The notes under the pieces: model-generated
What the model was told of the DNA's origin: nothing
What the model saw: the letters and a program-made list of their open reading frames with translations, nothing else
Database searches by the model: none
Made by a program: the position numbers and the translations under genes
DNA from: Botryllus schlosseri
Lineage: Eukaryota
Assembly: GCA_051294905.1 (NCBI GenBank)
Contig: CM119371.1
Coordinates: 40,178,001-40,242,000, forward strand
Length of the DNA stretch: 64,000 bases
Direction: 5' to 3'
Shown here: positions 4,811 to 48,783 of the stretch, in pieces
Position numbering within the stretch: the stretch's first letter is position 1
How the letters are laid out: every line of letters starts with the position of its first letter

Positions 4811-4859
4811 TGTTTTACTTAATTTGCAAAAAAGTTCTTTGTCATTTTATAACTTTTTT

Positions 4860-4868
4860 GGGGGGGTA
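4860..4868 (+). promoter_or_regulatory. Polypurine tract
   Basis: GGGGGGGTA immediately 5' of the 3' LTR's initial TG. Confidence 0.75.
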
Positions 4869-27278: not shown

Positions 27279-27400
27279 GACACGATTGTTGATATTTAAT
27301 GTTTTTACCATTCTCTACTAGTTGCTGACGATTACCCCAGACGAGTGTCAGCCGAAAATATTCGGGTTCATTTCACTATGAATATATTATTCAATTGTAT
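27279..27400 (+). mobile_element. Short Penelope pLTR fragment with mutated hammerhead (CAGACGA)
   Basis: High similarity to 38105-38223. Confidence 0.85.
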
Positions 27401-28668
27401 AGCAGCAGTGCAGAGCAGTGGTTCCTAACCTTGTCTCCAGCGTCCCTCAAGCGGAAACGCCCAGGGGTTGATATGGGGGGGGGGCTGAGATCAGGGGCAC
27501 AATATGGGGGACGATAAAGAAAAATGGCTTCGCAGTAGATGGTGTAGTATTAGGGCACATCCTTAAGGAGTATTCAGAGCAGATTAACAGTCCACAAAAT
27601 ATGTCATATCCTGAAATTTTTGGTCGCGCTATGCGACGATGTTTGCTACATATGTTTTCATAAATGTAGTGGATTATTATAATTCATGTAAAATAAATTG
27701 GACGTACTTTCAGATCGCCGATTTCCCATTAAAGCACTGCCATCACGCTTGCTAGGGTTACTTTCAACAAAATCTGTAGAACTAGGTATTATATCCTGCA
27801 GCGCATAACACGTGGAAATCGAAGAAGGAGGCACTGTACATCACTTTTGAGAATGAGAGCCCCTTTGTTGTTTGTCGACTACTATGGTCATTTACATCAG
27901 GCATATCTTCGTTTTTATTCCGTAGCTGTCGACTTGCAGCACGGCCAACTTCTAGGCTTTCATCAGACACCGCTTACACGCATGATAACGAGATGGAGCC
28001 TAGCTAGATAGGAGTTCTAGAATCGACCGTGGTCGGACTCACATCCGCAATCTATTAGTGTTGCAGCTGTGGATTATACTAATACGCTATCTCGCCACTA
28101 TGGCGCGCAAGCGATGTCTCAACAAAGCCTAAAAACGAAAATGGAGCCTTGCTATAGCAAAATTTTCCAAATTAGATTAGAATAAGAATTATAGTTACGC
28201 AGTATTTTTTTAAAATTAGACGAGAATTGGAGTATTGAATTAGAATTACTGAATTCGCGAAAAGTTGGACATTGAATGAAGTTCGGTTGATATCAAATCA
28301 GAGTTCATTCCTCAAAAGCATTAGAATAACAAACGTCTGTATAGAAAGCTTGGCTTTTCGCACTGTTCGGTCCTCCTGTAACATTTTCAAGAAAACTAGA
28401 AACGTGATTGGTATTCCAAGCAAAGATACACCTCCCAAATCAGATAAGGATTATAGGACCAGCATTTTGTTCTAATCAGTCCAACTTGACATTAATAATT
28501 ATCTAGTTGTCCATGTATGTGTGCTGTAAATCAACGGACCAGTAATGAAAATCGGAAATATCAGCCTGGTGTAAATGACCACAGTTCGTAACACCATGAC
28601 TTATTAGCAAATAAAGGCGTGACTCAGTTATGACATTCCCATAAATCTTTTGAAGAACGTCACCAAAG

Positions 28669-29183
28669 TACAGAACTTCAGTATACAATTAAATAGTATA
28701 TTCTTATTGAAATGAGACCCGAATATTCAGCAGCATACCAATACCGAGAAAACCATTACCGAGAATGGACATTAGCGAGAATGTCATTACCGAGAATGGA
28801 CATTAGCGAGAATGGACATTACCGAGAATGGTCATTATCGGGAATGGTCATTACCGAGAATGGCCAATGTCCAGAATATAGCTTACTGGGACTGACCTTG
28901 CCGCGAAATTTGTACCCGAGCATCGGTGCCGAATGTGGCAACGCCGTGATGCACTCACACGACCTGTGCATATGCATAACATGCCTGCATTGCATATATT
29001 GCATTCTCGGTAATGTCCATTCTCGGTGGTGTCCATTCTCGGTAATGTCCATTCTCTGTGGTGTGCATTCTCGGTAATGTCCATTCTCGTTGGTGTCCAA
29101 TCTCGGTAATGGCATTCTCGGTAATGGTTTTCTCGGTATTGACCAGACACCAATATTTTCGGCTGACACTCTTCAGGGGTAAT
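28669..29183 (-). mobile_element. Penelope pLTR fragment split by a MITE insertion
   Basis: 28669-28727 and 29152-29183 rejoin into the hammerhead-containing sequence. Confidence 0.8.
28728..29151. mobile_element. MITE with inverted arrays of a ~17-bp repeat (CATTACCGAGAATGGA)
   Basis: Tandem units at 28740-28863 are mirrored at 29000-29141; right end GACCAGACACC; AATATT on both sides. Confidence 0.8.
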
Positions 29184-29477
29184 CGCGCGAAATCAAGCAA
29201 TATTTCCTTCATTACAACGAATCAAGTCGACAGACAGAAGACAGAAGATCCCGACCTCGAGCACAAACATTACCGCGTTAGCATTCGTTGAAGGGACATT
29301 AAGGAGAAATTACACACTAACACTGGAAATAATATTTGTCCGATGTGATACGGATTTCATCCGATATAAGATCCCGAGACAAATCACGGCGCAAATCTGC
29401 GATTGGAGTGAGGTTTGGCGTTGCTGTGTAAATCGGGCAATATATTGCGTCCTCGTTACGAAATCATTTGTCTAGAT

Positions 29478-29832
29478 CAGTGGTTCCCAACGTGGGCGAT
29501 TTGGCGGCTTATGAGGGCGAAAATGACGAAGGGCGCGATAGGGGCGCGAAAATGGACAAAGGGGGCGACAGGGGGCGAAAATAGCGAGGGGGCGATGACG
29601 CGTTGAAACGACTATATTGGAGTCAAGTCGGAGAAATGACCTTTTTTCTTAGTCAACCCACGGAAATTTAGTTGCAAAAGTGTAAAACTCGACAACGAAC
29701 CGAAAAGTTTTTAGTCAATCCGCCGATGATTACAGATTGTATACCGATTTTTCGGTTCACAAAATTTTAGGGGCGATGATCGACGTTGAGCTTGAAAAGG
29801 GGGCGATGAGTCGAAAAGGTTGGTAACCACTG
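29478..29832. mobile_element. hAT/Charlie-type MITE (7704 family)
   Basis: CAGTGGTT TIR, perfect TSD GTCTAGAT. Confidence 0.92.
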
Positions 29833-29977
29833 GTCTAGATGCTTTACTATGGTCAGAATTCGCCACTATCGCGAGGGGTCCGTGGTCATAGGAGAAATGA
29901 ACAATTGGGCATGCGACAAATGGGTGGGTTAAGTTTTAGCTTTAGGGTTGATTTAGGGACTTAGGGTTACGGTTAGG

Positions 29978-30008
<31 letters not shown>

Positions 30009-31080
30009 AGGGATAATTTCATGGTTATGCCTGTGGTTAGGGTTAATTTTGGTGTTATAAAGTCAAATGCTTAAGTGACGAATGCTAAAGTGTCCATGCT
30101 CAACTGCCGTTTTTCATTGTGTCCCATTCTCATATTCTGGTAGGGCAATCATCGAGAGGGTATTACAAAGACACAAGTCAAATAACGTTTGCGGCTAGTT
30201 TATTCATTTGCGTTAGATTGTCAGTGCGTTGGCCTATTCATATTTAGTTTCGTCAGTATAACTACAACAGGTTTTCTTTCTACTCAATGTACAAGTGCAA
30301 GAAGCGATTTCCTATCCCTATCAAAACCACTTCAAGTGCAATAGAAAATGAAAGGTCGGAAAAGCACTCAAGTAAGTGGTACTGAGACTGGAATTTAGTA
30401 GACATTCGCAGATATCTCCTCGAGTCTCGGCTCTACCATGTTTCTATGTGTCGGAGGTTTATCTGGGCTCCTCATCGCCGATCCCGCTGCTAACGCAGTG
30501 CATTGATAAAAAGCCCAGAGGCAGAGTGAGCCGAGCTCCAAAGACGGCAGCAGAGACCCGAAGTGAACGCAATGAAAGCAAGAATGAATGTGTGAAAGTG
30601 TGGGAGTGCGCGAGCATGAAAAAAAAAGTGCAAAAGACCGAAAGCAAAGATACTGAACTGTACTAAATGCATTGTCGTGGCGCACAAGGCCTTCACAGGC
30701 GATAAGCGCCACTGTTGTTGTGTGTAATAATAATAGATATCTCCTTTCCAAATTGCAAGATGCATATTCCCGACTAAAGCAAAAGGACTAATTACCCTAC
30801 AAATATTATTTGATACCGGGGTGAAATTGCATGTTTGTTAGGGCAATTTAACCCCTAAACGTGTAACCAACATATGCCAAAACCACTCTTTGCTTTCAAA
30901 ATTCCAAGTCTGAAAAGTAAGTAGTTTGGACTTGAAGACTGTGAAATTGAAGTAGTAGTCCAAAGACATAACAGCCTGAGTAAATATGTAGTAGATGTAG
31001 GTAATACCCACTTGGGTACTCCGAAAAAGTACCTCATTACTGACAATCTATGCCCTATGGAGTTACGTTACACGTAATTG

Positions 31081-31144
31081 AATAGTATATTCATATTGAA
31101 TACTATTCAGTTTTATATTGAAGTTCTGTACCTCCAAGAAGCTC
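31081..31144. mobile_element. 64-bp minimal Penelope insertion (inverted arm plus tail)
   Basis: 13-bp TSD TTACACGTAATTG (31068-31080, 31145-31157); interior is pLTR 3'-end sequence in both orientations. Confidence 0.8.
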
Positions 31145-31557
31145 TTACACGTAATTGTAGACTCAAATCCATAAGCCTATAAATTCTACTTCGCGGTGGG
31201 AATTTTGTGGTAACACCTTGTTTCTTCTGTTCGTCACATATGATTCTATTACAACAATCGATGGGTATGCTATTTACCCTGGTTGGCGGACGTCCTGTTA
31301 TAAACTCACAATGAGGTCATCCAGCCAGCAAATAATCAAATATCAGCTTACAAAATACTTGTAGCATCACCTATAAAAGAAAGCCGGTCATTCTTGTACC
31401 ATAATAGTATAAAGTCAGTTCGGTATCGGATCAAGACGGACGTCTCAAGCATCCAATGACGATTTGCATATGGCATATGTGCTTGGAAAAGAATTAACTT
31501 TCGACTATTTGCGACAATACTTGGGTCTGAAGTGACTTCAGTAGCGATCCGGATATC

Positions 31558-32427
31558 ATGAGCTTGCTTGGAGCATATTTGTCGGCTATACTGTCACTGG
31601 TGAACTTTGTGACGGATATCTGCTCGGTTTGGATATACTGGATGCACACGGACGATAGTTTGGACGGTTTCTATGTAGCGCTAATCTCTACACTGATCTT
31701 ATTTATAAGTCCCATACCTATTACCATGGGTATAGCGTGTACCTTCACCAAAAGATCCACTAAAGTGGAAAAAACTTTGCGCAAAGCAAAAACGCTCGAA
31801 TTGACATTGACAGCTGTACCTCAACTATGGATCAGTTTATACGCTTTATCAGTGGGCGCAAATCTACTTTACGGGGAAAGAACACTATTACTCGTGTCAT
31901 CAGCTATGTCGTATTTATCAGTATGCGCGATCTTACCGCGTGCCGATAACAAAATGTTAAGTAAAACCTTTCAAAACGATTCCATGACTGACTTCGACCG
32001 TTTCGTGGTTAACGCCTCAAAATGTGCGATGTTTATGGCGCGAATTTTGTTGCTGGTTTACATGACCTCACAGATCGGATGGTATTATACGGCTTTGTTT
32101 TTTGGGACACATTGGATTTTGTTATCTGCTCTGTGTTTTTGTACGATTTCAAGACATTATACCAATCCGTGTCGAAATGCTGTTGACGCGATCGAATCAG
32201 GACTTTTGCATTTCTTCTCGTGGGTATGTCCAGTTAAGCGGTCTTGGTCTCATTTCTTCATAACGGCGTATTTTATTTTGGAGCACGTTCTAGCGTGGAT
32301 CTTGTTGCTGTGTTTGCCTAACAACCAATCTACTTTTCTCATCGTCAATGTACTGGCATTTCATGTGTTGATGAATACTATCGCTACTTTTTTCATGGTT
32401 GCGTATGTTATTAAGAAATGGCCGTGA
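31558..32427 (+). CDS. XK-related (XKR family) multi-pass membrane protein, intronless ORF
   Basis: 289-aa hydrophobic ORF with XK-family landmarks in order: NFVTDI in TM1, LELTLTAVPQLWISLY (cf. E..LES.PQL.LQLY), SSAMSYLS, ARILLL, FGTHW, YFILEH. Confidence 0.82.
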   Translation: MSLLGAYLSAILSLVNFVTDICSVWIYWMHTDDSLDGFYVALISTLILFISPIPITMGIACTFTKRSTKVEKTLRKAKTLELTLTAVPQLWISLYALSVGANLLYGERTLLLVSSAMSYLSVCAILPRADNKMLSKTFQNDSMTDFDRFVVNASKCAMFMARILLLVYMTSQIGWYYTALFFGTHWILLSALCFCTISRHYTNPCRNAVDAIESGLLHFFSWVCPVKRSWSHFFITAYFILEHVLAWILLLCLPNNQSTFLIVNVLAFHVLMNTIATFFMVAYVIKKWP

Positions 32428-33469
32428 GTTCGGATATAACTTATCCTGCTGCACTGAAGGGTTTACAATTACGCGGGAAGTAATATATAGCCAATTATTG
32501 CACGGAGTCTCCTAGTATTGCGCATAGCGAATATTCCTGCTGTGCGTCAACTTATACACCCGTTTCATTTAATTTCGTAAACAGCTTTTTCATTTCGATG
32601 TAATCAAGGTGATTTATTTATTTTCATTGCAAATCTTAGTCTCTAGTAGGCTATTTGTTTTTACCGAATGCATTGGAAAAATTCAAAAGGGCCAAAATCG
32701 ACTGTCACCAGACTGTTATTTCATGTCATGTGACGTACGAAAGCAATTACTTTAGTATGGACAAGACATTGTAAAAGAGAGGAGTATTCTTCACGGAGTG
32801 TGTGGCAGTCATACATAGGACTACTCCAGCATACTCAATGTATATCCATTTTTGTGAATATTGGTTGTAATCACAGCTAAAAGAAAACGTTAGATTCGGT
32901 GCGTGCTTCTTCATCATTCGTATCTCCTACTGTGTGACACAGTCACAGTTGCCAACGAACATTATAACGAATATTATAGCGCAATGCAACATTGTTCCTA
33001 ATGACATCGTGCCATTTGAAAAAATGACCTACATTGCCCCAATGCTTGCATCAGAATCAAAATCAATTCAGAATTATTATTCATCAAAAGTTTCGTGGAA
33101 TAAACGCGAACTGCGATACAATCAAACATGAAGAATACGTCGAAACAGCTTCTTTAATACACTCGATCAACTCTTACCTCGGCCTGCATGCTTGATTGGG
33201 CTGGACATTATCACAAAAATTAGGAAATTGCACATGATCTGTGCAGTATATGTGAGGCACGAGATGTCGGAATAACTGGACCATTTACGCCTCTCTTTCA
33301 AATCACGTAAAACGCGCCAGTTTATCCCACACGATAATCTTATAATTGGGGTGTCAAATCTGATTTTAAATAATTATACGTATTGCAATATAGGATTCTC
33401 AAAGCCCCTCGTAAATCACACAGGATGGGGTTTTGGCCTTGGATGAATTCGCAATACAAATAAAATCGT

Positions 33470-33633
33470 TTTAATGATATATTCATGACAGAAATATATT
33501 AAAACCCGAAGCTTTTCGAGCTAACACTATTCAGCGGCAATCGTCAGCGAATGGAGAATTTCAAAAGCATATTTCTGTCATGAATATATTATTAAAATAT
33601 ATATTATAGTTCTGTACCCCAAAGAGTCTCTTC
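33470..33633. mobile_element. Divergent Penelope pLTR insertion (inverted arm plus tail) with variant hammerhead on the minus strand
   Basis: Minus strand reads GCTGACG...CTGAATAG TGTTAGCT CGAAA AGCT TC GGG; tail GTTCTGTACCCCAAAGAG. Confidence 0.7.
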
Positions 33634-33824
33634 AAAAATAATCGATTAACACGCGAAATCTTCATATTTTGACTTATGGCCGACTACACAATGCACACGA
33701 TAAGTTGCCAACCCTTGGCCTACGGAAATATCGAAAAATTGGACAAGCAATAAAAATCAAGATACCTATTTCAATACGAGGCACAATGGAAGTAAAAGTG
33801 TCAGCCAAAACATATACCAGCATT

Positions 33825-34095
33825 TGAATAGCTTCTTGGGGGTACAGACTACAGAACCTCAATATAACAATGATTAGCATATTCATATTGAAATGAACCC
33901 GAATATATTAGGCTGGCACTCGTCAGGGGTAATCGTCAGCAACTAGTAGAGATCTGGAAAGAACATTGTATTGTACCATTGTTGATATAAAATGTTCTCT
34001 CCAATTCTCTACTAGTTGCTGACGATTGCCCCTGACGAGTGTCAGCCGGAAATATTCGGGTTCATTTCAATATGATTATTCTATTCAATTGTATA
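33825..34095. mobile_element. Tail-out inverted pair of Penelope pLTR fragments, both hammerhead cores mutated
   Basis: Minus arm ~33825-33975 includes the tail; plus arm ~33978-34095; both match 38110-38223. Confidence 0.87.
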
Positions 34096-34944
34096 TATTA
34101 GCTAGAATGTATTCCAGTTTCATACTCTTCTTTCTCCTTTCTGCGGATGATGTCATATATGAAGTGGCGGAAGAGCATTGTTTCAAGTCTATCGTTATAG
34201 CGTTGCTCCATTCGTTGCCTACAAACCCAGTATAAAAGTACGGTAATGTGACCGTGCCTTGCCTGTAATAATATATTGCGTTGTAGTCTACGATTCTCAC
34301 GGCGTCATGTTTTCATCACTGGCCGCGTGATGTGATTGTGATACTATCGTCTGTTCCAGGCGAATCACGTTGCAGACCACCTGATCTGCGAAGGTGTGGG
34401 CGAGGCGTGACTTATTACTAAGCGAATCGCATAAACCCGATATCAACTTCGGGCAGCGTGTCTAATGTCACGTCTAACGTCAACATTTGATCTAAGCAAA
34501 TCTTTTTGGTGTCGACATCAGACGCTGTTCACGAATCAATCTCGTCTAAACATCATTGGAGTATTGCCAGATCGCAGATCGCATATGTTATGTACCGGTT
34601 GGAATGTTTCCGTGCGGGCCGTTTCGATTTTTGATTGGGTAGAATCGCATGTGTGTTTGGTTTGTAAATAGCATTGTGTAATTTGCGTAATATGTATAAG
34701 TCTGACGTATTGTAACTCAATGTGCGAACGCACCCCACTTGATTTCGACGATGTTGTCAGTAATACTTAGTAGAAAAGTCACCATCTCTGATTGAACTAA
34801 CTACTTCGTTACAGCTTAATATTAACTTACTTTAATTGGCGTAAATATTTGTTATGCTCCGTACAGTATACACATTTTTTGTGGTTTTGTAGTTTTCGTT
34901 AGCATTTTACTTTTAGTAGCAATATCCCAATCGATGCTATATAT

Positions 34945-35122
34945 ACAATACATTGTATATAATGCCGGTGACGTCATTGTTGGTCATACGATTGTTGATT
35001 TACAATGTTCTTTCCAATTCTCTACTGGTGTTTGACGATTACCCGAAACCTTCGGATTTGTTTCAATATGAATATATTATTCAGTTACATATTGAGTTTC
35101 TGTACCTCCAAGAAACTTTTCA
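34945..35122 (+). mobile_element. Degenerate Penelope pLTR fragment, hammerhead core deleted
   Basis: Similar to 38085-38223 plus tail (CTGTACCTCCAAGAA); CTGACGA-stem II is missing. Confidence 0.75.
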
Positions 35123-36244
35123 AGTTGATATCATTTCTATATTATTATGTACGGATGCAGTAGCAGTAATTAGTCATCGGCCACCTCTACATATCTCGTA
35201 GATGTAAGACCAGTGGATTGTACGATTTACATATAGGACATTCCAGCAGACTGACCTGACAATACACTTCGCCTAACGCTGTACGAAATATGCGGTGTCT
35301 GGCCAATATATTCGTGTCTATCAGTCACACGCGGCATTCATAACATGCGTCAATCCCGTTCACAGCAACTGAAACGCCTACTTGCGATGCGAAAAGATGT
35401 CTTCAAACACAATATTGTTGTGTCATGACTAGGGTCTGCTGGTAATATTTCCTGGTTCAAACATACGGGATATCTCACTTCGAGTGCAGTTAAATTGCCG
35501 CATCACGTCGCTTTGAAATGGAATGACAGATTCCTCGCAAATAGGTAATAAACCCGGATAATTGAGATATCAATAAAACTCGATAACTTTGCAGTAAAAT
35601 TAGTATGCTGTAGCTTAAAGTTCCTCCGTCGAAAGAATCTGTTCCGTGTTCAGTTCAATGCTAATATGACAGATAGCAAATGGACGAGGATTGAGAAACC
35701 GCTCGGCCTGATCATTTCAACGCCCGCAATTGATATCAACAGGTATAAATAGCTACCACCACAAGCTTTGGTAACGCCGAAGTGTACGCGAACGGGTAAT
35801 TTACCGTTAATATATTGATCAATCTGTTTGGGTGAGGTCGATGTGAATAGAAATCGGTAATTCGATGAAGCAAGCCACTGCATCAAGTCGACCGAAATTC
35901 TGGCAGCATACGTCAAATGATACCACTGCTGAATCTCTCTTCTCAAATGGAACCGACAAGTTTTGCCTTCCAAGTTAATAAAGCTCGAATCTAGTTATCT
36001 CTATTGAAAGGATGGTAGCCTATGTTTACCAAGGTCATTGTATTTACGCCGTAGCGTAACGATGACTTCTGATCGCGTACCAGGGAAATACCTCAAGTAT
36101 AGTTCATAGGGAGGATAAAAAATGACGTATTCTATAGAACTGCTTAGGCAGGCCCACTGTATTTCTCATAGTCGTTATTTGAACAGCTTCTTTGAGGTAC
36201 AGAACTTCAATATACAATTGAATAGTATATTCATATTAAAATGA

Positions 36245-36288
36245 ACCCGAATATTTTCGGCTGACACTCGTCAGGGGTAATCGTCAGC
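36245..36288 (-). ncRNA. Minimal type I hammerhead ribozyme (left arm)
   Basis: Reverse complement of 38152-38195. Confidence 0.85.
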
Positions 36289-36379
36289 AACTAGTAGAGA
36301 ATTCGAAAGAACAGCGTATATCAACAATCGTAACACAAAATATGACGTCACCAGCACGAAATGTCGAATACGAGAGCGT

Positions 36380-36953
36380 TCAATGTACTATTTTTAGATG
36401 ATACACGAACTCTTTTTGTTGACACAGCCTTGGCTGGTGTATTTTGATAAAAGTCGACTCCAAGGCGCACAAATGAAAGTGTGAGCGACCCTTTCCGAGT
36501 ATGCGAAATCTGTCGTCTCGATAATTTTTCGCGCAGGCGGGATTATCCAACAAGTGTTTGCCAATTGCAGAATTTATGGCCTTTGATTGTTCCGCATCAA
36601 TCTTGAGCGGGTGAGTTAAGGGTGAGCTTTTCATCGAGCGTGTTCTAATGAATCTAGGGACATGCTGATTTATGCGTTCCTGCAATCGCTTTGACGTTCT
36701 TCCCACGTAGCCACAATCACAGTGACACTTAAATTCATAAACTACATTGCTTTGCTGAAGTGCGGGTAGCACGTCTTTACGTGTTGCGGGGAGCAGTTGC
36801 GCTGTCGTGAAAATCACGTTGGTCTTCACTGTGTCGTAACACTTATTGACCGCTGAAATCAATTGCTTTTCAAAGCGGGTGGAAATAGGCCCTATCCAAG
36901 GTAGATGGATGTAAACATCTTTGGTTGTTCGTTCGGTAGGCTCTGTTGACTTT
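36380..36953 (-). pseudogene. Inverted duplicate of the GIY-YIG endonuclease half of the Penelope ORF
   Basis: Translation identical to the C-terminal ~190 aa of the plus-strand ORF. Confidence 0.9.
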
Positions 36954-38060
36954 AAAATAGACGGCATATCGATGGGATCTCCCTTGGGACCTATTTTGGC
37001 TAACATTTTCGTAGGATTTTATGAGGTCGAGCTTCTCACCCAGCGTGTGTCCGCCAAACCGGTGTTGTACCGACGTTATGTAGACGACACTTTTGTCATT
37101 TTCAGAAATGAGATAGACTGTGATCAATTTCTCATTCACTTAAACTCGCTTCACCCGGCTCTGTTATTCACAATTGAAAAAGAACGAAATAACTCATTGT
37201 CATTTTTGGACGTTTTAGTCGAAAAACATGATACCAATAAATTTGAAACGTCAATCTTCCGGAAACCGACATTCACTGGCCAATACCTTCGTTGGAACTC
37301 ATTTAGTCCTAGACGCGGAAAAATCAACCTCATAGGCACCCTCGTGCATAGAGCGTTGATGATATGTTCGGGTAATAAACTGAACTCAGAACTTGACAAT
37401 ATCCGGAAAATCTTACTTGATAACGGTTACCCTGAACATGTCATCAACCGTGGCATAGAGAGGAAAGTAACGCATTTCAATGCAGAAAAGTCAACAGAGC
37501 CTACCGAACGAACAACCAAAGATGTTTACATCCATCTACCTTGGATAGGGCCTATTTCCACCCGCTTTGAAAAGCAATTGATTTCAGCGGTCAATAAGTG
37601 TTACGACACAGTGAAGACCAACGTGATTTTCACGACAGCGCAACTGCTCCCCGCAACACGTAAAGACGTGCTACCCGCACTTCAGCAAAGCAATGTAGTT
37701 TATGAATTTAAGTGTCACTGTGATTGTGGCTACGTGGGAAGAACGTCAAAGCGATTGCAGGAACGCATAAATCAGCATGTCCCTAGATTCATTAGAACAC
37801 GCTCGATGAAAAGCTCACCCTTAACTCACCCGCTCAAGATTGATGCGGAACAATCAAAGGCCATAAATTCTGCAATTGGCAAACACTTGTTGGATAATCC
37901 CGCCTGCGCGAAAAATTATCGAGACGACAGATTTCGCATACTCGGAAAGGGTCGCTCACACTTTCATTTGTGCGCCTTGGAGTCGACTTTTATCAAAATA
38001 CACCAGCCAAGGCTGTGTCAACAAAAAGAGTTCGTGTATCATCTAAAAATAGTACATTGA
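36954..38060 (+). CDS. 5'-truncated Penelope RT (C-terminal part) plus GIY-YIG endonuclease
   Basis: DGISMGSPLGPILAN, YRRYVDDTF, LSFLDV, IFRKPTFTGQYL, then NVVYEFKC..CGYVGRTSKRLQERINQH and LESTFI. The N-terminal RT is missing; the ORF-track start at 36921 lies in the inverted arm. Confidence 0.92.
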   Translation, partial: KIDGISMGSPLGPILANIFVGFYEVELLTQRVSAKPVLYRRYVDDTFVIFRNEIDCDQFLIHLNSLHPALLFTIEKERNNSLSFLDVLVEKHDTNKFETSIFRKPTFTGQYLRWNSFSPRRGKINLIGTLVHRALMICSGNKLNSELDNIRKILLDNGYPEHVINRGIERKVTHFNAEKSTEPTERTTKDVYIHLPWIGPISTRFEKQLISAVNKCYDTVKTNVIFTTAQLLPATRKDVLPALQQSNVVYEFKCHCDCGYVGRTSKRLQERINQHVPRFIRTRSMKSSPLTHPLKIDAEQSKAINSAIGKHLLDNPACAKNYRDDRFRILGKGRSHFHLCALESTFIKIHQPRLCQQKEFVYHLKIVH

Positions 38061-38151
38061 ACGCTCTCGTATTCGACATTTCGTGCTGGTGACGTCATAT
38101 TTTGTGTTACGATTGTTGATATACGCTGTTCTTTCGAATTCTCTACTAGTT

Positions 38152-38195
38152 GCTGACGATTACCCCTGACGAGTGTCAGCCGAAAATATTCGGGT
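38152..38195 (+). ncRNA. Minimal type I hammerhead ribozyme (right arm)
   Basis: ACCC-CUGACGA-G[UGUCAGC]C-GAAA-AUAU-UC^GGGU. Stem I is ACCC/GGGU; stem III is the palindrome AAUAUU; loop II is complementary to upstream GCUGACG. Predicted cleavage after 38191. Confidence 0.85.
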
Positions 38196-39647
38196 TCATT
38201 TTAATATGAATATACTATTCAATAGTCGTTATTGTAAAATGATAACTATGGCTGACTTATAACAGCTCGTTCGCATTGAAGTAAGACGTTGTGAAGTTGC
38301 GTCATTGGAAGTCATCAGATTACTTGGGATACACATCATGTGTTTATCGCAGTAGTGGAGAAATTCGGTACCTTGACTCATGCGTGACTCTATAGTGAAT
38401 ACGATCACTTATACGGGGAAATATTCAGGTATCTTGCTCAAGCTATGGGTATGAATACTTGAGATCAAGCGACACAGACGCTTTCATCGTAATTATCATG
38501 TTTCGATTCCAGATACTTCAAGACTTGCAATACAGTTAATAAAAAGGAAGGAACAGAAACGACTAATTAATCAAACTCATTTCTTAGCCTACAAATATAT
38601 AGTTAGCAATCGGATAAAAAACGTGATAAAGGAGGCATACACGCCATAGTCTAGTTTTAATGAGAAATGTCATTCAGAATTCCAGGTAAACAATGAAGAG
38701 ACATTTTACAGAATAGTGTACAGGCGAAGTCGCTGTGTCAAGATCAATTCGACAATCTCAATACGCACCCTATATTAATCCGATAAAATGGACATGCATT
38801 TAGACTTCAAGGTGATCATGGTCATGGTCATCGGTCATACTTTGAAAGCTCTGCTATCGAACCAAAGAGGGCTTGTACACATGTGCGTTAGATTTCATAG
38901 TACTGAAGGTGTCAAATTCAGCGGACAGATACATAGATTGAAAGAATACATTAACTAGCAATTTCTAGCTACCTCGTTTCTTTATTATTCAAGGCTCGAT
39001 TTGATCGAAAAGAATCTCACAGAACTAACTTACATAATATTAGTCGTATAACTGAATTCGGTATACGTATTTACAGGTGATATAGTCACTTTCGTTTGAT
39101 CGTGTTTTTGCGTTTGGTTGCTACTACTGCGCCAACATTGGGTTTGGCTGTGAATAGCTGGTGCTTTCGCGTGTGTCATCATTCTCCTAGCGAACGTATT
39201 AGATCGTTATGCTATTCACTCCCAGTTTTCTCTATTCAATTTATTGTGTGTTATGAACTTGGGCTGTATAAATGTCGTACGATAGGGGGTGTTCTTCAAG
39301 GATTCTGCTGTAGACCCTACGTACACTGTACCGGAATCATACTTATTGGATTACATGAGCGTGAGCTTGAGCATCCTGTATAATGAATAATTGTCCGATC
39401 GAATTTATATCAAACAGTGCAAGTTGCCTACATAAGAGGCCCTTGATTACAGGGGAAATGGCTATCCCATTTGCCTGGAAAATAACTGGACAGTTGATAG
39501 TTATACAGTTAGACAGTTCTGCAGGCGATAATGCGTTGATTATAGGTTGCAAGGTCAATTTGATTTTGATGCTATATGGTGGTAGCAACAGGACATGTTT
39601 TGTTCAGATAATACGACTTATACAAGTTTCTTTAATATTACGAACTG

Positions 39648-41282
39648 ATGATGTCGGGGAAGCAGTCGGTTCCGGAGCTGCAAATTTCGCAGACAATAAC
39701 AAAGCACCTTCAGAGATCGCGTTTCAGTGGGAAGTACGCAGATTTCAAAATCATAGTCGGCAGCAAAGTGTTCCCAGCTCACCGCTTTATTCTCGGAAAC
39801 AAATCGGCGTTTTTCCGTGACCTGATTCATAATAACGCAAATAAAGACACCCCAGTATCGTGTGATCATTCGGAATACTCATCAGATGCTGTCGGCGTAT
39901 GCTTGGAATACATTTACACAGATCGACTCGAGTTCGAGTCTCACAACGCGCCGGCTGTTTTGCGCGTGGCGCATCATTGGACTTTGCGTTATGTCGTCAC
40001 CAAGTGCGAGCAATTGCTGAAGACTAGCATAACGTCGTCAAACTGTATCAAAACAAGAGCGCTGGCTACGAAACTTGGCCTTGCGGACCTCGGGGAGTGC
40101 GCTAACAGGGCTATTCTTGGGCATTTTGAAATGGTGACTAAAGCTAAAGATCTAATCATTTTATCAGTTGATGATATGAAGTCCATTAAAGAGACAGCTA
40201 TGGAAAGAGCATCAGTACGCATTAAAGACTTATGGACTCTATTTTACACATGGCACAAACGAAAAAACAAGGCTGGATCTCACACCTTATGCGAATGCTT
40301 GCATATATTCCCGTTCGACCAGTTTACAGTCACCGGTTTCAAAGAGCAGATATGGAAAAACGAACACGTGTCGAACTGTGACCAGTGTCAGGAAGTCGCG
40401 GTAAGGGCGTTTCTGAGTACATTTGACGAGCCACGTAAAGGCGACGACGTTTTATTCCTTAAAAAGCTCGCGAAGAAATACAATTTTCGTACGTTGAACG
40501 AAATTACGCGCAGACACATTGTAGAGAATCATTTATTTATATTCACAAATCACGACATGGGCGAGCTCGATAACGATGATTTGATGGAGTGCATTAACGA
40601 TATCGAGGACATGTGCACGCCCGGTGAGTTTACGGCGATCGTGAAATGGATGGTAAAATCGAAAAAGCGACAAGGAATTTTCCCGCAAATATTTAAATGC
40701 GTGGAGGATCCTACCTGCGCGCCACACAACGTGTTTCTGTCCAGTATTGGCGGATTTTTTGGTCTTTCCGAACCCACCGCGGCAGAAGTAGCATGTTCTA
40801 TTTCACGTGAGCAATATTGGTGGCCGAAATACTGCCTTTTCCTCAAAAAGCTGGCGGGAAAATACGACTGTAGTGTTACAGAGAAATTCGTGGATCAATG
40901 CATAGCCGGGGGTTTTGCCGAGGTCTGTGAAGACGTCGGTTTTTTAGAACTAAGTGCTCCTGACTTGATAACTTATCTGTCGTCGAAGTCCACGTATAGC
41001 TGTCGTGAAAGCCAGATTTGGGGGGCGATCATGTGCTGGATTCGTCATCACGAGTCGAGACGGGAGTCGTTTCAGGCTATCTTCGATTCGCTAAAGCTAG
41101 AAGAATTTACGACCGGTTTCCTGAGGTCGAACATATTAATCAACGCGTTAGTGATGGAGTCCAAAGCCAGTGTTTTCTCCGTGATGAGGGAGATTCTGCG
41201 AAGATTAGAAATATTGGAAAGCGAACACGCGGAAATGAAGAAAAACCTTCGCAACAAAATCGATCGGAAACAGACGAAATGA
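39648..41282 (+). CDS. BTB/POZ protein with repeated BACK-like modules and a C-terminal coiled coil, no Kelch repeats; intronless ORF
   Basis: BTB: YADFKIIVGSKVFPAHRFILGNKSAFFRDL...LEYIYT. BACK-like segments begin at HFEMVTKAKDL, NHLFIFTNHDMGEL and FAEVCEDVGFLELS...ESQIWGAIMCWIRH. Confidence 0.9.
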   Translation: MMSGKQSVPELQISQTITKHLQRSRFSGKYADFKIIVGSKVFPAHRFILGNKSAFFRDLIHNNANKDTPVSCDHSEYSSDAVGVCLEYIYTDRLEFESHNAPAVLRVAHHWTLRYVVTKCEQLLKTSITSSNCIKTRALATKLGLADLGECANRAILGHFEMVTKAKDLIILSVDDMKSIKETAMERASVRIKDLWTLFYTWHKRKNKAGSHTLCECLHIFPFDQFTVTGFKEQIWKNEHVSNCDQCQEVAVRAFLSTFDEPRKGDDVLFLKKLAKKYNFRTLNEITRRHIVENHLFIFTNHDMGELDNDDLMECINDIEDMCTPGEFTAIVKWMVKSKKRQGIFPQIFKCVEDPTCAPHNVFLSSIGGFFGLSEPTAAEVACSISREQYWWPKYCLFLKKLAGKYDCSVTEKFVDQCIAGGFAEVCEDVGFLELSAPDLITYLSSKSTYSCRESQIWGAIMCWIRHHESRRESFQAIFDSLKLEEFTTGFLRSNILINALVMESKASVFSVMREILRRLEILESEHAEMKKNLRNKIDRKQTK

Positions 41283-42393
41283 ACGACGTATGTCTTTATC
41301 CCGGAACGTATATAGATCTGCTCTGCTCGCTGAAACGCAGACATGTTTACCAAGCAAGGTTTGCTGGATGCAGTGTTGTTTTGTCAGGCTTAACCTGGTG
41401 CTAACTAGAGAATGGGTTCCCGACCATTTTTTGGCGTACCCCGTATTTGAATTTGAAAATGTATCAGTTATTCAGCAGCGCCGACGGCTTATATGTATCT
41501 GTACATGTATACTATTAACACATGAAACTACCGGTTCATTCGTAGATTTCCAGGAACGAGAAATTACAGTCCTATTGATTTCCATGCACTCGACACTTTA
41601 ATACTCATAGCAGTGGCCGGATATCATTCTCACTTTATGCCAGGTGGGGCTTTAAAATGATGCTCCTACTTCGTTCTTTTCTATTAAGAAAAATGAATTC
41701 GGATTTTCAGAAATGGCCCGCCCATAAAATCCGTATCCCTATAGTTAACATTCTCGTAATAGTCATTGGTATTTAATTTCCGTCCCCAGGCCATCCAGAG
41801 ATAGATAAACGACCCAACGTTGAAAGCTTTCGAACTAAAGTCTCACTGGTATCAAATTTTCTCAGCTTTCCTATGAAACCAATATTTGCGGATTGACAGT
41901 AAACGTTTCCATATTTAGTGGATTGCTGATTTGCATAAATTTATATACCTGTTGATCGCAGCACCGTGACTAGGTCTACATTCCTTTCTATCAGTGGATA
42001 CCTCTTGAATCGAGGGACTGCTAAACATTTTGCAGACGTGTTCGAATGTTTCGGTGAAAATACTTATATTTCAATATTACTTTACTCAATATTATCCGTT
42101 TTGCTATGCTCCCCGAATTTTATAAGTTTTTATATTGATTCGTATCTTTGATGTGAATAAAATCTCTATTATATCTTTGAACTATGTTCTATGCATCGCA
42201 ATCTCATAATATTGGCAAATTTATATTGTGTTAGCACGGCAGTCGATCAAGTGTCGTTGCCGATCGATTTGCACGCTGCATTTTTAGTTCGATTTGACAG
42301 GACATGCCAACGATATGTTAGAGCCGTCGTGAATTATAAAAAGCCCGCCTTGGACACGAAAGAGAGCATATGGTGGCGATTTCGCCCTAGCCA

Positions 42394-42905
42394 CAGTGAG
42401 GAGCATCGGAGTCGGAGTGGATTCGGAGCGGAGTTTTGCCGATTTTGTGACAGTCGGAGCGGAGTCGGAGTTTACTACTGATATTTTTTCGGAGAATTTT
42501 GGAGTATTGTAACTTTTGTCTACGATATATTTATATAGCTCTGACCAAAATAACCTATTGATTATGATTACAAACCAAAGCACAGACAGTTGACACCTTG
42601 TAAAGCTGTAATATGACGGGTAACATGCAAAAATGATTGCCAAGTGCATAAAAATCAGCCATCTGCACTGCAATTGGGGACTGGAAAGTAAACAATACAA
42701 TAAGGGCAACCATATTATCACATGTACCATGTTGTACCATGTGTGCCATGTACCATGCTTGCCACTGTTTGGGATACATGACGAGATTCGTCGGAGTATC
42801 TCGGTGTCTGGGATTGAACTCTTCGGAGTCGGAGGGAGTTTTCCTCAGACACCAAAATTGTCGGAGGGATTCGGAGTCTCGAAAAGCACTATCCGCTCAT
42901 CACTG
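42394..42905. mobile_element. hAT-type MITE with CGGAGT repeats
   Basis: CAGTGAGGAGC...GCTCATCACTG ends, perfect 8-bp TSD CCTAGCCA. Confidence 0.9.
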
Positions 42906-43495
42906 CCTAGCCAACAGCACGTAACCAAAGGCTATAAGTTCTAATCTCGGCTCTAGCATGTTTCCGAGCTTCGAATTAACTGGACTCATCACCGACTTGC
43001 TATCACTATTATACGATCCATTTCCCGAATTATAACGACATGGTACAGCAATCATGTTTACTTTAATTTTACTTTTCTTTATCAATCATATTATCTCATC
43101 GAATACTCACCCTAATTCGTCACGATGCAATTATTAGCATAAATAATACTTGCGATGTATTATTGCAGTGGTTCTTAACCAAGGTGTCGATTGTATTGCT
43201 CAGAGGTGCAGCGAGGAAATGAGGTAAACAAAAAACCGTTGACATATAATGCAAATTCAGGACATCCAAATTCTGAATAGCATCTGGAAAGCTTATGACA
43301 CTGCATGGCAATGAGGCAGTGATAGCAGTGTTATACTCGTCGGAGACTGGAACAAAGCGTCTCTCGCACTTGATTGGCATTGTTCGATTTATTATTGTAA
43401 CACTATCGGCAGCCGTGATTTTAATCAAAAGCCGGTATTGGAGTCCATTGATTTTGAGTGCTCATTAGGTGTTAACCTTGAAACTTGGCCTAGTG

Positions 43496-44200
43496 CAGTG
43501 GTTCCCAACCGGGGGGGGGGATTCCTTGGGTGGAATTTTGACATTTTTAGGGGGAAATCTGGCCTAATTTCTTTAGGGAAAATCTGGGTTTGGCATTTTA
43601 TCGGAAGATACACTGGGTTCATGAGGTTTTTAGATTTTTATGGTATAGAACTGTTAAGTAGAAATTAGTTAGTTACAAGTGTATGTTTCTTTGGCGGCTT
43701 TCAGGCTATGTGTATGTTTCCCCAGACCCCCTGATAAAGTGAGGCTCACGAGACGATTTCATTGAGTCTGCGACAGCCTCTCGACCAAATTGCTACGAAG
43801 CAGGAAAACGTCAAGCCGAATTCAGCACAAGGCCTCTAGTGAAATTGTTCAACTTTTCAGGCCAACATATGAGCTAACGTGAAAAACATACCGTACAAAA
43901 TTCATCGATTCAACTCAAGTCTATAGCAAGCGGACTTGGTGATTTATTTTTCGTCAGCAGCTACCCGACCGGTCAAAACAGGTCAAATTTGACTGTACTT
44001 CACCAAAGTTTAGTGCGGTCCGCATTCGCCATAGTTCGGACAAATCTGAATATGTTTGGTCATTAATTGTTCAGTCAATAAATGGTTGCGCGTTAAAAAC
44101 CACATTTTTTCAGTCGCAGGCAACTTTTTCATAGGGGGGGAATTTTTGCTCAAGTATCGGCCAAGGGGATGCACGAGACAAAAAAGGTTGGGAACCACTG
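43496..44200. mobile_element. hAT/Charlie-type MITE
   Basis: TIR CAGTGGTTCCCAACC, perfect TSD GCCTAGTG. Confidence 0.92.
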
Positions 44201-44366
44201 GCCTAGTGTTAGGCAATATCGTCGAGATATACCATACAAAATCTTGGCAGCCATCTCAGTAAGAAACATCGTCAAAATCAACGCGCAACAATACCGACTT
44301 TCGCGTATTTTATGCGTAGGTTTAATGACAGAACAGCGCTCACCTATTCTATACAAGACGTTTGGT

Positions 44367-44806
44367 TAGGCTTACCATATTTTGGAAATGTAAAAAGAGG
44401 ACAATTTTTCAGAAATTCCAGACATGCAGAACTGGAGAAGAATTCTCAAAACCCGGTAAATTTTTCCCACTTCGTGATCGGTTGACTAAAAAAAAAGGTC
44501 ATCACTTCCGCTCAGTGCTCAAAATAACGTTTTTCTCTCCACATTGCCAGGAGGATGACTATAAAAAAGGTCTTCTTTTCGCTCATAGCTAAAATCACCG
44601 CTTTTTCCTCCGAAATACCCGCCGGAGCTTCACTTCTGCGCTAATTTGCGGCATATCACTCGCAATTTGCTCTAAATCTGACATATAATTTCAAAAAAGA
44701 GGACAAAATCTCAAAAAAGAGGGCAAAAGGGCGTCCTCCGAGGACCCTTTCAAAAAAGTCAAAAAAGAGGACAAATCCTATTAAAAGAGGACGTATGGTA
44801 ACCCTA
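44367..44806. mobile_element. hAT(Ac)-like MITE with GAGGAC repeats
   Basis: TAGGCTTACCATA...TATGGTAACCCTA ends; no clean TSD. Confidence 0.7.
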
Positions 44807-46297
44807 CCATAGGGTGATGAAACGACCCGTCCATCACGCTGTTCGCGTTTGTCACGAAATCATCTGTACTGTATTGTGAGCCAGCGCGAGGCGCGAAAAT
44901 TTTCGATCATTTATGATACAATCGGTCAATCAGATCGGCGATTACATAATATATTATCAATTTATTTTCCTCTCTAGTCAAGTAATTATTTACCGGTAGA
45001 GCTGAGTGACGTGTCTTGAAAACGGGAAGGCCCGTGAATAATAATTAAACACCTTCTGGCGGGCGGACCCGTTGATATGACTTCGTTACATGATGTTATT
45101 TCGTGACTTCCAGTCTGCTATATCAAAAAATATAGAATCACTCAAACGTAGGCTTCTAAACTAAGAGACGCACACGATTTCAAATTGGTATTTCTTCACT
45201 GGCATAAAATTTTTCCCAGCGGGATGGTATTTGTCTTGTGAGGTTCAGAATGCAAAGACATGAACATTCGGCGTCAGTCATTTAGGCGCATATGGACAAT
45301 TAAACCTATTTGTATTTTATATATAGAACGCAGTCTTCGGTCAGCATAAGGGCATAGACCTTTTCGGCCAAGGTTTTCTCGCTGCCGATCGCTCTGGCAC
45401 ACTTCTTGGAGTCGCGTGTTATACGGCCTAAAACTTGATTGCATGTCTTGGTGGGTCGTGGCGCGGTGATGGCCCAATACCAAATAATAAAGATAAATGG
45501 CTAATTGAATTCGCGCACTACGCCAAAAAATGTTGAAAAATTGGCTCAAATTTTCAAAAAATACTCTATGATTTATGCTAATTCACGAAATAATTTTGAG
45601 CCCCCTTCGAGCTCGGGCCCCCCCCCAATTGGGGGGTTTGGGGTGCGGCAGTTACGGTGCTGGATATAGCCTACATATATATTTATTTGTTCATAGGCGC
45701 CTAAATGGCTGGCGCCAAATGTTACTGTCCTGGCAATAAGAACCCCACAAAAAATGACATCTCGCAGATATATACCTATCTGAAATCGTGTGCGTCTTTA
45801 AGTTTGGTACGTATGGGCGATTTGAATATATTTTGACATAGCAGACAGGCCACGAAATGTCATTACGTAACGAAGTCATTATACCCACGGGTCCGCCCGA
45901 ATATGTTCAATAGGGCTGTTCAAAAATAAAAAAAATTCCATGATTCCAGCCATTCACTGATTAAATTGTAAGGTTAGCCTAAAAAAAACGCTGCACACCA
46001 AATTTGGTTCAATTCGAACATATATAGGACTCCAAAGATCCAATTAAAATTTTTAATTTATTATAGAAAATTAAAAAAAAAAAATTCAAATTTTTCTGCC
46101 AACCCCATGAAATTGTTGAGCTGTCTTCAAAGACGTTGTAAAACAAATTTGAGTCAATTCCGACCAGTAGAAGCGGGGTTATGTGAGTTTTTTGTTGAAA
46201 AATCGCGGATTATCCACCGTTTGGGAACCACTGGTCTATTATATCTCATTACGTTAACTGTTTAGGGTATCCTCACATCTGCACTACGCTTACCTAC

Positions 46298-48194
46298 CAG
46301 TGATGAGCGGACTGTGATATTTTTCGGTCCAAGTCCAATCCTGAAAATTTTTAACTCACTCCTACTCCATCCTGATCCAAAAATATTTTCAAAATTCACA
46401 GTCCAAGTCCGGTACTGAAAATTTTCAACTCAGTCCTACTATATACTGATCCAATAATATTTTCAAAACTTACAGTCCAACTCCATCCTGATCCAAAAAT
46501 ATTTTCAAAATCTAAAGTCCCAATCTATAAATAAAAAACGGAAGAACATGTTATAGAGAATAATTAGGCTATCTGAAATATAACTCTGGTCTGTGAAAAG
46601 ATGTATATTTCCAATGTTTGCCTTCCCTCGAGCTGCAGTGGGCCTACATGACACAGCAACTTTAATTTTACATTTTAGAAACACGAATGTAAATATCTAG
46701 ACTGGCAAGATGGCTATCAATACCTAACCATCAAATCATGAGCAATGTGCATGTACGTACGTACAATGACATCAGGGTTGATCATTATAGTTTTTTTTAT
46801 AAATTTGACTGGCTAGTTGATAAAATTGTTAGGTCGGTTTGAACAAACGCTGCACATCAAATTCGATTCAATTCCAGCCTGTAGAAGCGAAGTTATTACA
46901 ACTGGAAAATTTTCAATATAATAAAAAGTATACACACTTTTTCGAATTATACTGGCTGCCCGTCCCTATAAAGTTTTGTAAGAAAATCGTGCATAACAAA
47001 TTTGACTCAATTCCAACCCGCACGGTATTTACTGTGGGATATTCTCTCATCAATAATTATAGATCTGCAACACTACTTTGAAGAGCTTCTTGGAGGTACA
47101 GAACTTGAATATACAATTGAATAGTATATTCATATTGAAATGAACCCGAATATTTTCGGCAGAAACTCGTCAGGGGTAATCGTCAGCAACTAATAGATAA
47201 TTGAAAATAACATTGTATATCATCAATCGTATCACAAAATATGACAGCCGAAAATATCCGGGCTCATTCCAATATGAACATACTATTCAACACCATTTTT
47301 CTAACCCAAAATTTTCCACTTCAAAGAATTCACCTACACCGGTTGGAATTCAACCAGTAGCCTCTTTAGCCAGTAAATTTCGAAAAAAAGTTATATCTAT
47401 CCAATCCTAATGTACCTACTATCCATACCAGACAAACAACCAATATATTCACGTTCCGGGTCAATACACAACAAACTTGCCATAGTAGTTTGTTCCGTGA
47501 GTAGGTACATAAAATATTTTATCATCATCATCATTGGTTTATTAGCAATTTTATCAGTTCAATACACCACAAAAAATGCGATACAATGAAAAGACAGGAA
47601 GGTGTCGAAGCGACAAGGAGCAGTCTATGGAATCTGACACCCACCTTGGCCTAGGCGATATAAGGAGGAGGCATGCACACTGAATGAAAGTAAAGAAGAT
47701 AGTATGGAAAAAGAAAGCGACAATAAATAGGGCGGCATGTCATGGGAAGCGAGATCGATAGGTCAGTCGTGGTCCGGTAATCTTGAGGATGGACTGTATT
47801 TATTTAGTAGTAATTGCTTGTATTTCGACTTGAATGTGGACATGCTCGTCGACTGTCGGATGGCAGACGAAAGAACCAGCCAAATCACAATATATAGGTG
47901 AGCAACTACTACATTAACGATCAACTTGAATCAACGTCCATTGGCAACACTGGGAACAATTCTTCTCTCCATCCGCCCGCACTCAGCTATATAAACAAAC
48001 ACTGAGCTATATTAAAATACCCCGCACTTCTGGTTGCGAAATCAGCGTGCCCGAGTCCGGATTTTGGCATGTCCAAGTCCAACTATATTTTTGAAAATCA
48101 CAATCCGAGTCCAAACTTTTTTCTCAAAATCACTATCCGGACCTAACGAAAATAACCCATAATCCTGATCCTGTCCAATCCAATGCTCATCCTG
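46298..48194. mobile_element. hAT-type element (CAGTGATGAGC TIR) with nested MITE, Penelope and LINE fragments
   Basis: TSD TTACCTAC/CTACCTAC; AGTCC/ATCC subterminal repeats at both ends. Confidence 0.78.
47079..47288. mobile_element. Tail-out inverted Penelope pLTR insertion
   Basis: Minus arm with tail and intact CUGACGA/GAAA core; short plus arm ends TACTATTC; CAACAC in both flanks. Confidence 0.85.
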
Positions 48195-48627
48195 CTACCT
48201 ACCTCATCTTAGAAAAAGTTCTGGCGCATACAACGAACGTCTTGCATTTTCTGCCGATGGCTATGCAACTTCTTGCCCCCTTCTACGCTTTCGCATGATA
48301 ACATACACTGATTAAGTCTCCTCACACCGCAACAATCCAACCAAATTTACTACAAGTTCAAATGACTAATTATTGTTTATTTCACACTAATTCTACACAT
48401 TACATAACATGAAAATGAGCTGCATGAACAAAATACAATCAGCGAAAATTCAGTCAGTACACTCCTAGTCTAAGCTAATGTACTTAGTAGTCATTAACAA
48501 TTTTCTCGGTTGTGGCTAATATTATTGTTGTTTCAATCACAACGGATAATGAGGAATATTTGTCAACCACAAAATGTTACAGAATGTCAAGCAGCGAAGC
48601 ATAATAATTTCGTAATAAGTGTTTAGT

Positions 48628-48783
48628 GAATAGTATTTGGATAGTATATTCCTATTGAAATGGCCCCCGACATTTTCGGCTGACAATCGCTAGGTGTAAT
48701 CGTCAGCAACTAGTAAGGAATTGGAAGGAATGAATATACTATTCAATTGTATATTGCAGCTCTGTAACGCCAACAAGCTCTTT
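48628..48783. mobile_element. Degenerate inverted Penelope pLTR insertion
   Basis: Minus arm with decayed hammerhead, then plus arm TGAATATACTATTCAATTG plus tail. Confidence 0.75.

Follow-up and report, generated by a model that had tools for sequence, protein, structure and literature searches.

Tail-out inverted insertions of a Penelope-like element family in Botryllus schlosseri and their probable origin from two primers

In a 64,000-nt stretch of the Botryllus schlosseri genome (assembly GCA_051294905.1, contig CM119371.1, positions 40,178,001 to 40,242,000 of the forward strand; referred to below as the window) we found ten insertions that belong to a single Penelope-like element (PLE) family. 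Six of them are tail-out inversions, in which two arms point outwards and exactly one arm of each pair (6/6) carries a tail. We favour target-primed reverse transcription (TPRT) from two primers as the mechanism behind these inversions and consider it probable. An earlier note on this DNA had proposed such a two-primer integration, and the proposal gains support from the single tail per inversion, from tail-less arms that reach further 5', and from in vitro data on an anole element (PMC11167929). The tail-out inversion is the published norm for PLEs and is not peculiar to this locus (PMC3846280 and PMC8557442, cited here, like PMC8969392, PMC9977147, PMC4209133, PMC10085705, PMC6765202 and bioRxiv 10.64898/2026.07.22.740005, on the strength of excerpts).

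Results

Ten loci and two recurrent end points

Copies were detected with blastn and nhmmer and then with a profile hidden Markov model (HMM) built from the arms. The window-wide search returned ten Penelope/Poseidon-type loci (A to J, Table 1) with 16 arms, all between 25295 and 48790. Seventeen HMM matches at E<=0.0024 cover the 16 arms and lie inside 25294-48785; no further family copy was found elsewhere in the window, where the best match has E=0.2, and the best match on the reversed window, used as a control, has E=0.7. The nine loci listed in the earlier note are all present (B to J), to which A is added as a tenth, and its statement that none occur elsewhere in the window agrees with the profile search. 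Its count of at least six tail-out inversions was also correct (D, E, F, H, I, and J, six of the ten loci), as was the size range, with D (64 bp) as the smallest and H (2042 bp) as the largest. The single inverted architecture that it described holds for these six loci and not for A, B, C, and G, which are single-armed.

Arm coordinates refer to 36165-36420 read as its reverse complement, so that reference position p equals 36421 minus the position in the window. The tail arm ends near reference 241-243 and the tail-less arm near 202-205 in all six inversions, slightly later in F, whose tail-less arm runs 3-8 nt beyond the usual stop (reference 207-211). In the other five, the tail-less arm stops within 0-2 nt of TACTATTCAA, the stop point named in the earlier note. 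Stereotyped ends are supported across the six inversions. Both end points coincide with the motif CTnTTCAA, whose two copies lie 39 nt apart, and TTCAA stands at the end of 6/8 tail arms. The tail is 39 nt long and occurs on one arm only per inversion.

Perfect target site duplications (TSDs) flank D (13 bp) and H (12 bp). Those of E and I (10/12 positions, null fraction 0.013) and of F (8/10, null fraction 0.04) are imperfect, and none was found at J in a junction-constrained search (null fraction 0.42). A looser search left E, F, I, and J indistinguishable from chance, and the junction-constrained search separated E and I. We grade the TSDs as perfect in two inversions, likely in two, weak in one, and absent in one.

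Table 1. Positions of the family insertions and of other features in the window
Feature	Positions	Strand	Description
Locus A	25295..25380	+	old single arm without tail; ~20% diverged, 17/83 positions differ; E 1.3e-15
Locus B	27275..27401	+	single arm; hammerhead core with one substitution; tail not clear
Locus C	28650..29185	-	single tail-bearing arm, interrupted by insert 28728-29151 resembling a miniature inverted-repeat transposable element (MITE)
Locus D	31081..31144	tail-less arm -, tail arm +	64-bp inversion; TSD 31068-31080 / 31145-31157; without hammerhead
Locus E	33470..33632		inversion; diverged subfamily; private variants common to both arms; TSD 33457-33468 / 33633-33644
Locus F	33822..34092	tail arm -, tail-less arm +	inversion; weak TSD
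Locus G	34963..35122	+	single tail-bearing arm; 17-nt deletion across hammerhead core
Locus H	36180..38221	tail arm 36180-36953 (-), tail-less arm 36954-38221 (+)	2042-bp inversion; TSD 36168-36179 / 38222-38233
Locus I	47080..47287	tail arm - (longer), tail-less arm +	inversion; TSD 47068-47079 / 47288-47299
Locus J	48630..48786	tail-less arm -, tail arm +	inversion; 10-nt re-copy of tail-less arm's own end at junction
ORF start codon and tail	36180..36234	-	codes first 18-19 residues of element protein
Element ORF, 3' part	36954..38060	+	motifs assigned to reverse transcriptase (G-SPLG, YVDD), thumb, GIY-YIG-type endonuclease with C-x-C...H...H
Minimal type I hammerhead motif	38152..38195	+	CUGACGA core 38166-38172, GAAA at 38182, predicted cut after 38191
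Host ORF, XK-related membrane protein	31531..32427	+	uninterrupted; Pfam PF09815, E 1.4e-9
Host ORF, BTB and two BACK domains	39636..41282	+	uninterrupted; Pfam

Comparison of the two arms

At D, E, F, H, and J, five of the six inversions, the tail-less arm extends 5' beyond the start of the tail arm. In H the arms match at 100% of 740 nt and have 5/5 private variants in common, and those of E have two private variants shared vs. one unshared; the arms of D and J overlap too little for private variants to be compared. At the centre junctions the arms either overlap by 0-3 nt or are separated by a 2-nt insert. In H, at either end, the target begins with two letters that equal those next in the template, and ATT is read at several primer ends, as in the in vitro cut motif (PMC11167929). 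Testing arm lengths within pairs for correlation gave rho 0.66 (p 0.16).

Short direct re-copies were seen at the J junction (10 nt, 48627-48647) and in the F tail (7 nt, 33842-33855) and resemble slippage early in reverse transcription. In the plus-strand arm of I (47242-47290), four of five private changes are T>C in the sense orientation; chance could account for this, as could editing of a template that was antisense or double-stranded.

Element protein and the origin of the tail

The tail-less arm of H carries the 3' part of the element's open reading frame (ORF), with motifs that we take to be those of a reverse transcriptase (RT) and a GIY-YIG endonuclease (EN). This 381-aa frame aligns over 93-99% with most of the top homologs, which are 680-870 aa long and bear no informative names (best 63% identity, E 2e-142), and YVDD, C726/C728, YVGRT, H747, and H784 are unchanged across 14 aligned sequences. 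Pfam reports RVT_1 alone for the H protein, at E 3e-4 and under the cut-off. The translation has no Cys-rich linker between RT and EN; such a linker marks Neptune and Nematis, and its absence is the Penelope/Poseidon layout (PMC3846280, PMC8557442). An RT plus C-terminal GIY-YIG with CCHH in one ORF, without the linker, supports the Penelope identity assigned earlier. A pseudo-long terminal repeat (pLTR) overlapping the ORF start, an optional tail of 30-40 bp, an inverted 5'-truncated copy, and a TSD, the marks of the EN+ clade, are all found here. Judged from its sequence, the family is a new, high-copy EN+ PLE of Penelope/Poseidon layout.

The pLTR end plus tail, when translated, is identical at 11/19 residues to the N-terminus of a full-length homolog (P0001, E 4e-5). 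Since the tail consists of ORF-start codons, the template RNA appears to have continued into a copy lying behind it, as far as the beginning of that copy's ORF, and it is within this ORF that reverse transcription appears to have started, at about +17 and +56. The window holds no full-length copy of the family, two pattern scans of metagenome contigs gave 0 matches, and no relative was found among viral contigs.

Hammerhead motif

In the hammerhead motif of H, stem I measures 4 bp, stem III is palindromic, and helix II is made up of the G10.1-C11.1 pair alone with a 7-nt loop. Loop II is complementary to the heptamer 38152-38158, so that a pseudoknot is possible on sequence grounds. Both strands of the window were scanned with our own descriptor of the minimal type I form (CUGAnGA, GAAA, NUH, helix I, G10.1-C11.1, palindromic helix III). 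It gave three matches, all in family arms (H twice, I once), or 3/16 arms; the other arms lack it through short length, mutation, deletion (G), or interruption by the MITE-like insert (C). The term "hammerhead-bearing" used in the earlier note therefore suits the family and does not suit most copies.

The hammerhead pairs are intact in 89% of cells vs. 21-44% for slid partners, a comparison in which the structure was derived from one of the sequences scored. No pair of the hammerhead or pseudoknot shows a two-sided change in 10 decayed copies, and the minimum free energy (MFE) fold of H lacks the hammerhead structure (z -0.83). Among Rfam models, the hammerhead families gave no match at E<=1, and three miRNA models matched hairpins weakly. 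RNA ends are not piled up at the predicted cut site in one bulk cDNA run, a data type not expected to reveal cleavage. The minimal type I hammerheads described for PLEs (PMC4209133) share the short helix I, the conserved core, G10.1-C11.1, and the small palindromic helix III, which suits cleavage of dimers. Helix II is 6-8 bp in these published motifs and in the out-group loci described below, where it measures 6-7 bp, in contrast to one bp with a 7-nt loop here; the word "pseudoknot" does not occur in the excerpt of PMC4209133, and that of PMC10085705 treats other hammerhead permutations.

Out-group loci

Out of 26 related loci, the 11 on longer contigs were examined. Four of these (L009, L012, L015, and L023) show tail-out arms, a perfect TSD of 10-19 bp, and a one-sided extension of ~10-42 nt, and the architecture is therefore not peculiar to the present locus. 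The inverted pairs L002, L007, L017, and L025 have no clear TSD, and no inverted pair was found at L006, L008, and L016. These 11 loci and others are hammerhead-bearing PLEs on contigs filed under bacterial metagenome-assembled genomes; they are most likely contaminating animal DNA.

Abundance, truncation, and age

Contigs of three DNA-like runs were mapped to 30500-37480, and the depth at 36274 was compared with the median of single-copy bins (for run X6, 11/16 such bins were used and five with near-zero depth were left out). The summed depth was 29,000, 19,000, and 31,000 times the single-copy median; these values are inflated by contig overlap and are not copy numbers, and for that reason we take from them the order of magnitude alone, roughly 10^4 copies. 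In run X2, successive 233-nt bins from the pLTR into the ORF have depths of 14,892-, 6,053-, 1,368-, 575-, 171-, and 767-fold. This steep fall in the 5' direction indicates that most copies are short by 5' truncation, mostly under 400 nt.

Loose contig ends with mixed flanks (agreement ~0.4) occur in hundreds of contigs at the tail end in all three DNA runs (36176-36185, 31146); none of the 24 loose-end rows listed out of 4767 falls at the tail-less end. In three contigs (X2 record 7; X6 records 21 and 22) the match to the reference breaks off precisely at 36179, where the TSD ends, and 39-161 letters stay unaligned; these alleles therefore probably lack H. Other contigs in X5 and X6 (records 14, 16, 18, and 20) connect unique flanking sequence with E, F, or G, and these insertions are thus shared. 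The arms diverge from other copies by 0% to 23%, and the cluster must therefore have accumulated over time; H is the youngest insertion of the set. In the RNA run X24 the pLTR is covered equally in both mate directions and 97% of mapped reads continue unlike the reference, and this coverage is uninformative on element-specific transcription or cleavage. Nine of the 15 joints listed appeared as "opposite strand" and were not counted as inversions, most of them reflecting a switch between oppositely oriented reference copies; one (36347-36476, 3 shared letters) looks real.

Clustering of the insertions

All ten loci fall in 23.5 of the 64 kb (p=0.0008 for ten uniform points in 37% of the window), and eight lie within 12 kb (p=0.0015). 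Both tests are post hoc, as the window was flagged for this cluster, and with that reservation the insertions are truly clustered in the window, at p about 0.001. At an assumed density of one locus per 5, 10, or 20 kb, the chance of ten loci in 23.5 kb is 0.02, 1.7e-4, or 5e-7.

Neighbouring genes and other repeats

The cluster stretch holds two uninterrupted host ORFs (Table 1). The XK-related ORF is transcribed, with an RNA depth of 10-30 and a 3' end pile-up at 32499; the BTB-BACK-BACK ORF has no Kelch match in Pfam. No link was seen between the insertions and either gene. Capture of host genes between pLTRs was considered and gained no support: D and H, which lie just upstream of the two genes, are each flanked by their own perfect TSD. 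Pfam searches on frames outside the cluster (102 of 225 frames of >=62 aa) gave no match above the cut-off.

A BEL/Pao-type LTR retrotransposon occupies 1-5175, with LTRs identical at 300/300 positions (the left one is truncated where the window begins) and a single frame of 1466 aa in which Pfam finds DUF1759, integrase, and DUF5641 and no RT or RNase H, which suggests an in-frame internal loss. Satellite-like arrays of 37-43 nt units in +, -, + blocks lie at 55294-57083, with stray units at 28162 and 51064. One 14-mer resembling a terminal inverted repeat has 13 matches (7704, 8023, 17692, 23677, 24966, 27416, 29478, 29819, 43166, 43496, 44187, 46220, and 53614), several in facing pairs, and is probably that of a MITE family; the match at 27416 adjoins locus B. 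The MITE-like insert of locus C consists of inverted blocks of 16-nt tandem repeats, with a 6-bp duplication within the hammerhead palindrome of that locus. A weak hAT dimerisation match was seen at 5753-6019.

Discussion

A probable two-primer mechanism

In the mechanism we favour, the ten loci would be independent insertions of one family, mostly heavily 5'-truncated and laid down at different times. The template would be a read-through RNA covering the ORF, then the pLTR, then the start of the next copy's ORF, consistent with a tail that reads as ORF codons. The element protein would nick both target strands ~12 bp apart in AT-rich DNA, as the TSDs suggest and as in vitro work has demonstrated for the anole element, and each target 3' end would prime its own cDNA on the element RNA, at about +17 and +56 of the ORF, at the CTnTTCAA copies where the arms are seen to end. 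Both cDNAs would stop early and be joined head to head with a 0-3 nt overlap, which would leave a TSD-flanked tail-out inversion that has a single tail. At single-armed loci one side would have failed or been lost later, and the cluster would be a by-product of a very abundant family together with local tolerance or accessibility.

One tail arm and one tail-less arm in 6/6 inversions has a chance of 1/64 if each primer chose its start freely. Several points weigh against two-primer TPRT. Only six inversions were measured, and 4/10 loci are single-armed. The arms of F and I share 0 private variants and differ at 15/110 and 7/49 positions, which fits age and fits two templates as well. The anole study detected no difference between the strands in start-site use, and one tail per insertion is not predicted by this alone (PMC11167929). 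As the tail-less arm has a head start of 39 nt, its lead in 5/6 inversions is to be expected in part and is no proof of a shared RNA.

The identical arms of H and the private variants shared in H and E are also accounted for by a self-primed hairpin that is made first, possibly on an antisense template, and is then trimmed at its ends and inserted by the GIY-YIG endonuclease, with the tail arising from staggered resolution. Such a hairpin was proposed in PMC3846280, "EN-mediated resolution" is the wording of PMC8557442, and an extrachromosomal hairpin cut by the endonuclease may be compatible with the inversion geometry; the T>C changes of the plus-strand arm of I, a very small sample, are what editing of an antisense template would leave. 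The proposal is, however, older than the in vitro extension of target strands from the tail boundaries (PMC11167929), the junctions do not form symmetrical palindromes (in H the unique spacer is 533 nt long), and the re-copy at the J junction looks like slippage at a priming site. We prefer two primers to the hairpin, which we regard as unlikely, because the anole element in vitro cuts and extends both strands and starts at two tail-end sites. A single target-primed cDNA that folds back and copies itself into the second arm would likewise give the identical arms of H, and it fits locus I equally well, where the longer tail arm includes the 5' start of the other arm, a further point against two primers. 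In D, E, F, H, and J, however, the tail-less arm has sequence missing from the tail arm and lacks the tail itself; as each arm holds sequence that the other lacks, neither can be a DNA copy of the other and fold-back is contradicted there. The out-group loci L015 and L023 contradict it in the same manner, and as a general explanation we consider it very improbable.

A more specific form of two-primer TPRT can be put forward tentatively, although we would not expect it to hold. An asymmetric dimeric ribonucleoprotein (RNP) would place two RT centres on the CTnTTCAA pair, 39 nt apart, of one RNA and would always produce one tail-less and one tail-bearing cDNA, copying the same stretch twice; the hammerhead pseudoknot would replace helix II, and the region would be a true hotspot.

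Short copies and the cluster

The earlier note also suggested that some copies are retrozyme-like non-coding units that amplify via their own small RNA. Their short sizes, the hammerhead in the family, and the derivation of animal retrozymes from pLTRs (bioRxiv 10.64898/2026.07.22.740005) are in keeping with this. Non-LTR retrozymes are indeed similar in being pLTR-related, in having a type I hammerhead, and in that their short copies are non-coding (bioRxiv 10.64898/2026.07.22.740005; PMC6765202), but they are defined by tandem units each with a hammerhead, which were not seen in this family: there are no head-to-tail unit arrays, 0/31 tandem-repeat rows involve the family, and paired arms are all inverted. 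Every arm has a separate 5' end, the hammerhead core is kept in 3/16 arms, and the depth declines continuously from the pLTR into the ORF, as expected for truncation. With ~10^4 copies mostly under 400 nt, we read the short copies as truncation products, for which a median PLE insertion of 128 bp has been reported (PMC9977147), and the retrozyme idea was not upheld; we hold it to be highly unlikely.

For the cluster, regional targeting by the family is conceivable, for example to open germline chromatin near the two intronless genes or by attraction to earlier copies. Insertions of 0% to ~20% divergence struck the same stretch, in which other within-window repeats are scarcer (7% vs. 19%) and GC is no lower, and the range test (10/10 loci in 23.5 of 64 kb, p=0.0008) points the same way. 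On the other hand, the depth ratios suggest ~10^4 copies, and with a locus every 5-10 kb a genome should contain a cluster of this kind at some place (P 0.02-0.0002 per interval), the loci have AT-rich unique flanks with none certain to lie within an earlier copy, and purifying selection elsewhere would lead to the same pattern. For Penelope, TE-rich compartments that contain members of multigene families have already been reported (PMC3846280). Targeting, relaxed selection, and chance may each be compatible with the cluster, and we find targeting rather doubtful.

Comparison with known systems

In Pen2a_Av of Adineta vaga (PMC3846280) an inverted pLTR also lies at the 5' side, the tail is on one inverted pLTR, and pLTR plus tail encode the first ORF residues of an RT-GIY-YIG protein of 830-840 aa. 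Its tail is 31 bp vs. 39 nt here and its TSD 8-10 bp vs. ~12 bp; unlike Pen2a_Av, the present family has ~10^4 copies, most under 400 nt, and its pLTR covers ~6 codons, 19 with the tail. The Poseidon element PAc of Anolis carolinensis (PMC11167929) shares AT-rich targets, a hammerhead directly before or at the start codon, and two internal RT starts in the ORF start that match genomic tail ends and define the tail. The PAc protein, for which a dimer model is given, has a preference for ATT and both cleaves and extends the two strands. RT starts ~111-118 nt into the ORF at an AC-rich stem-loop in PAc, whereas the two starts here would lie at ~+17 and ~+56, both at CTnTTCAA. A curation guide (PMC8969392) lists such inverted Penelope structures. 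Our literature searches turned up no explicit two-primer model for Penelope inversions; subscription papers or supplements may state it.

In LINE-1 twin priming, both target strands prime cDNA on the element RNA and an inversion within a TSD results. There the cDNAs copy adjacent, largely non-overlapping parts of the RNA, whereas here the same 3' region is copied twice, over up to 740 nt.

Implications for Penelope-like elements

The insertions are mostly ordinary, their architecture is already known, and the cluster gives no sign of a function. What remains of value is the strict one-tail rule, the repeated start motif, the argument from arm containment, and the odd helix II, all of them on small numbers. 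In PMC8557442 the tail is described as often at one end only and the structures as arising by undefined steps, and the origin of the inverted copies and of the one-sided tail is stated there to be unresolved; PMC11167929 stops short of it and does not discuss inversions. The asymmetric RNP, if true, would explain the long-noted rule of a tail on one end only. With ~10^4 short, young, and polymorphic insertions, each of which can be read whole, the family offers material to decide between the two-primer and hairpin models.

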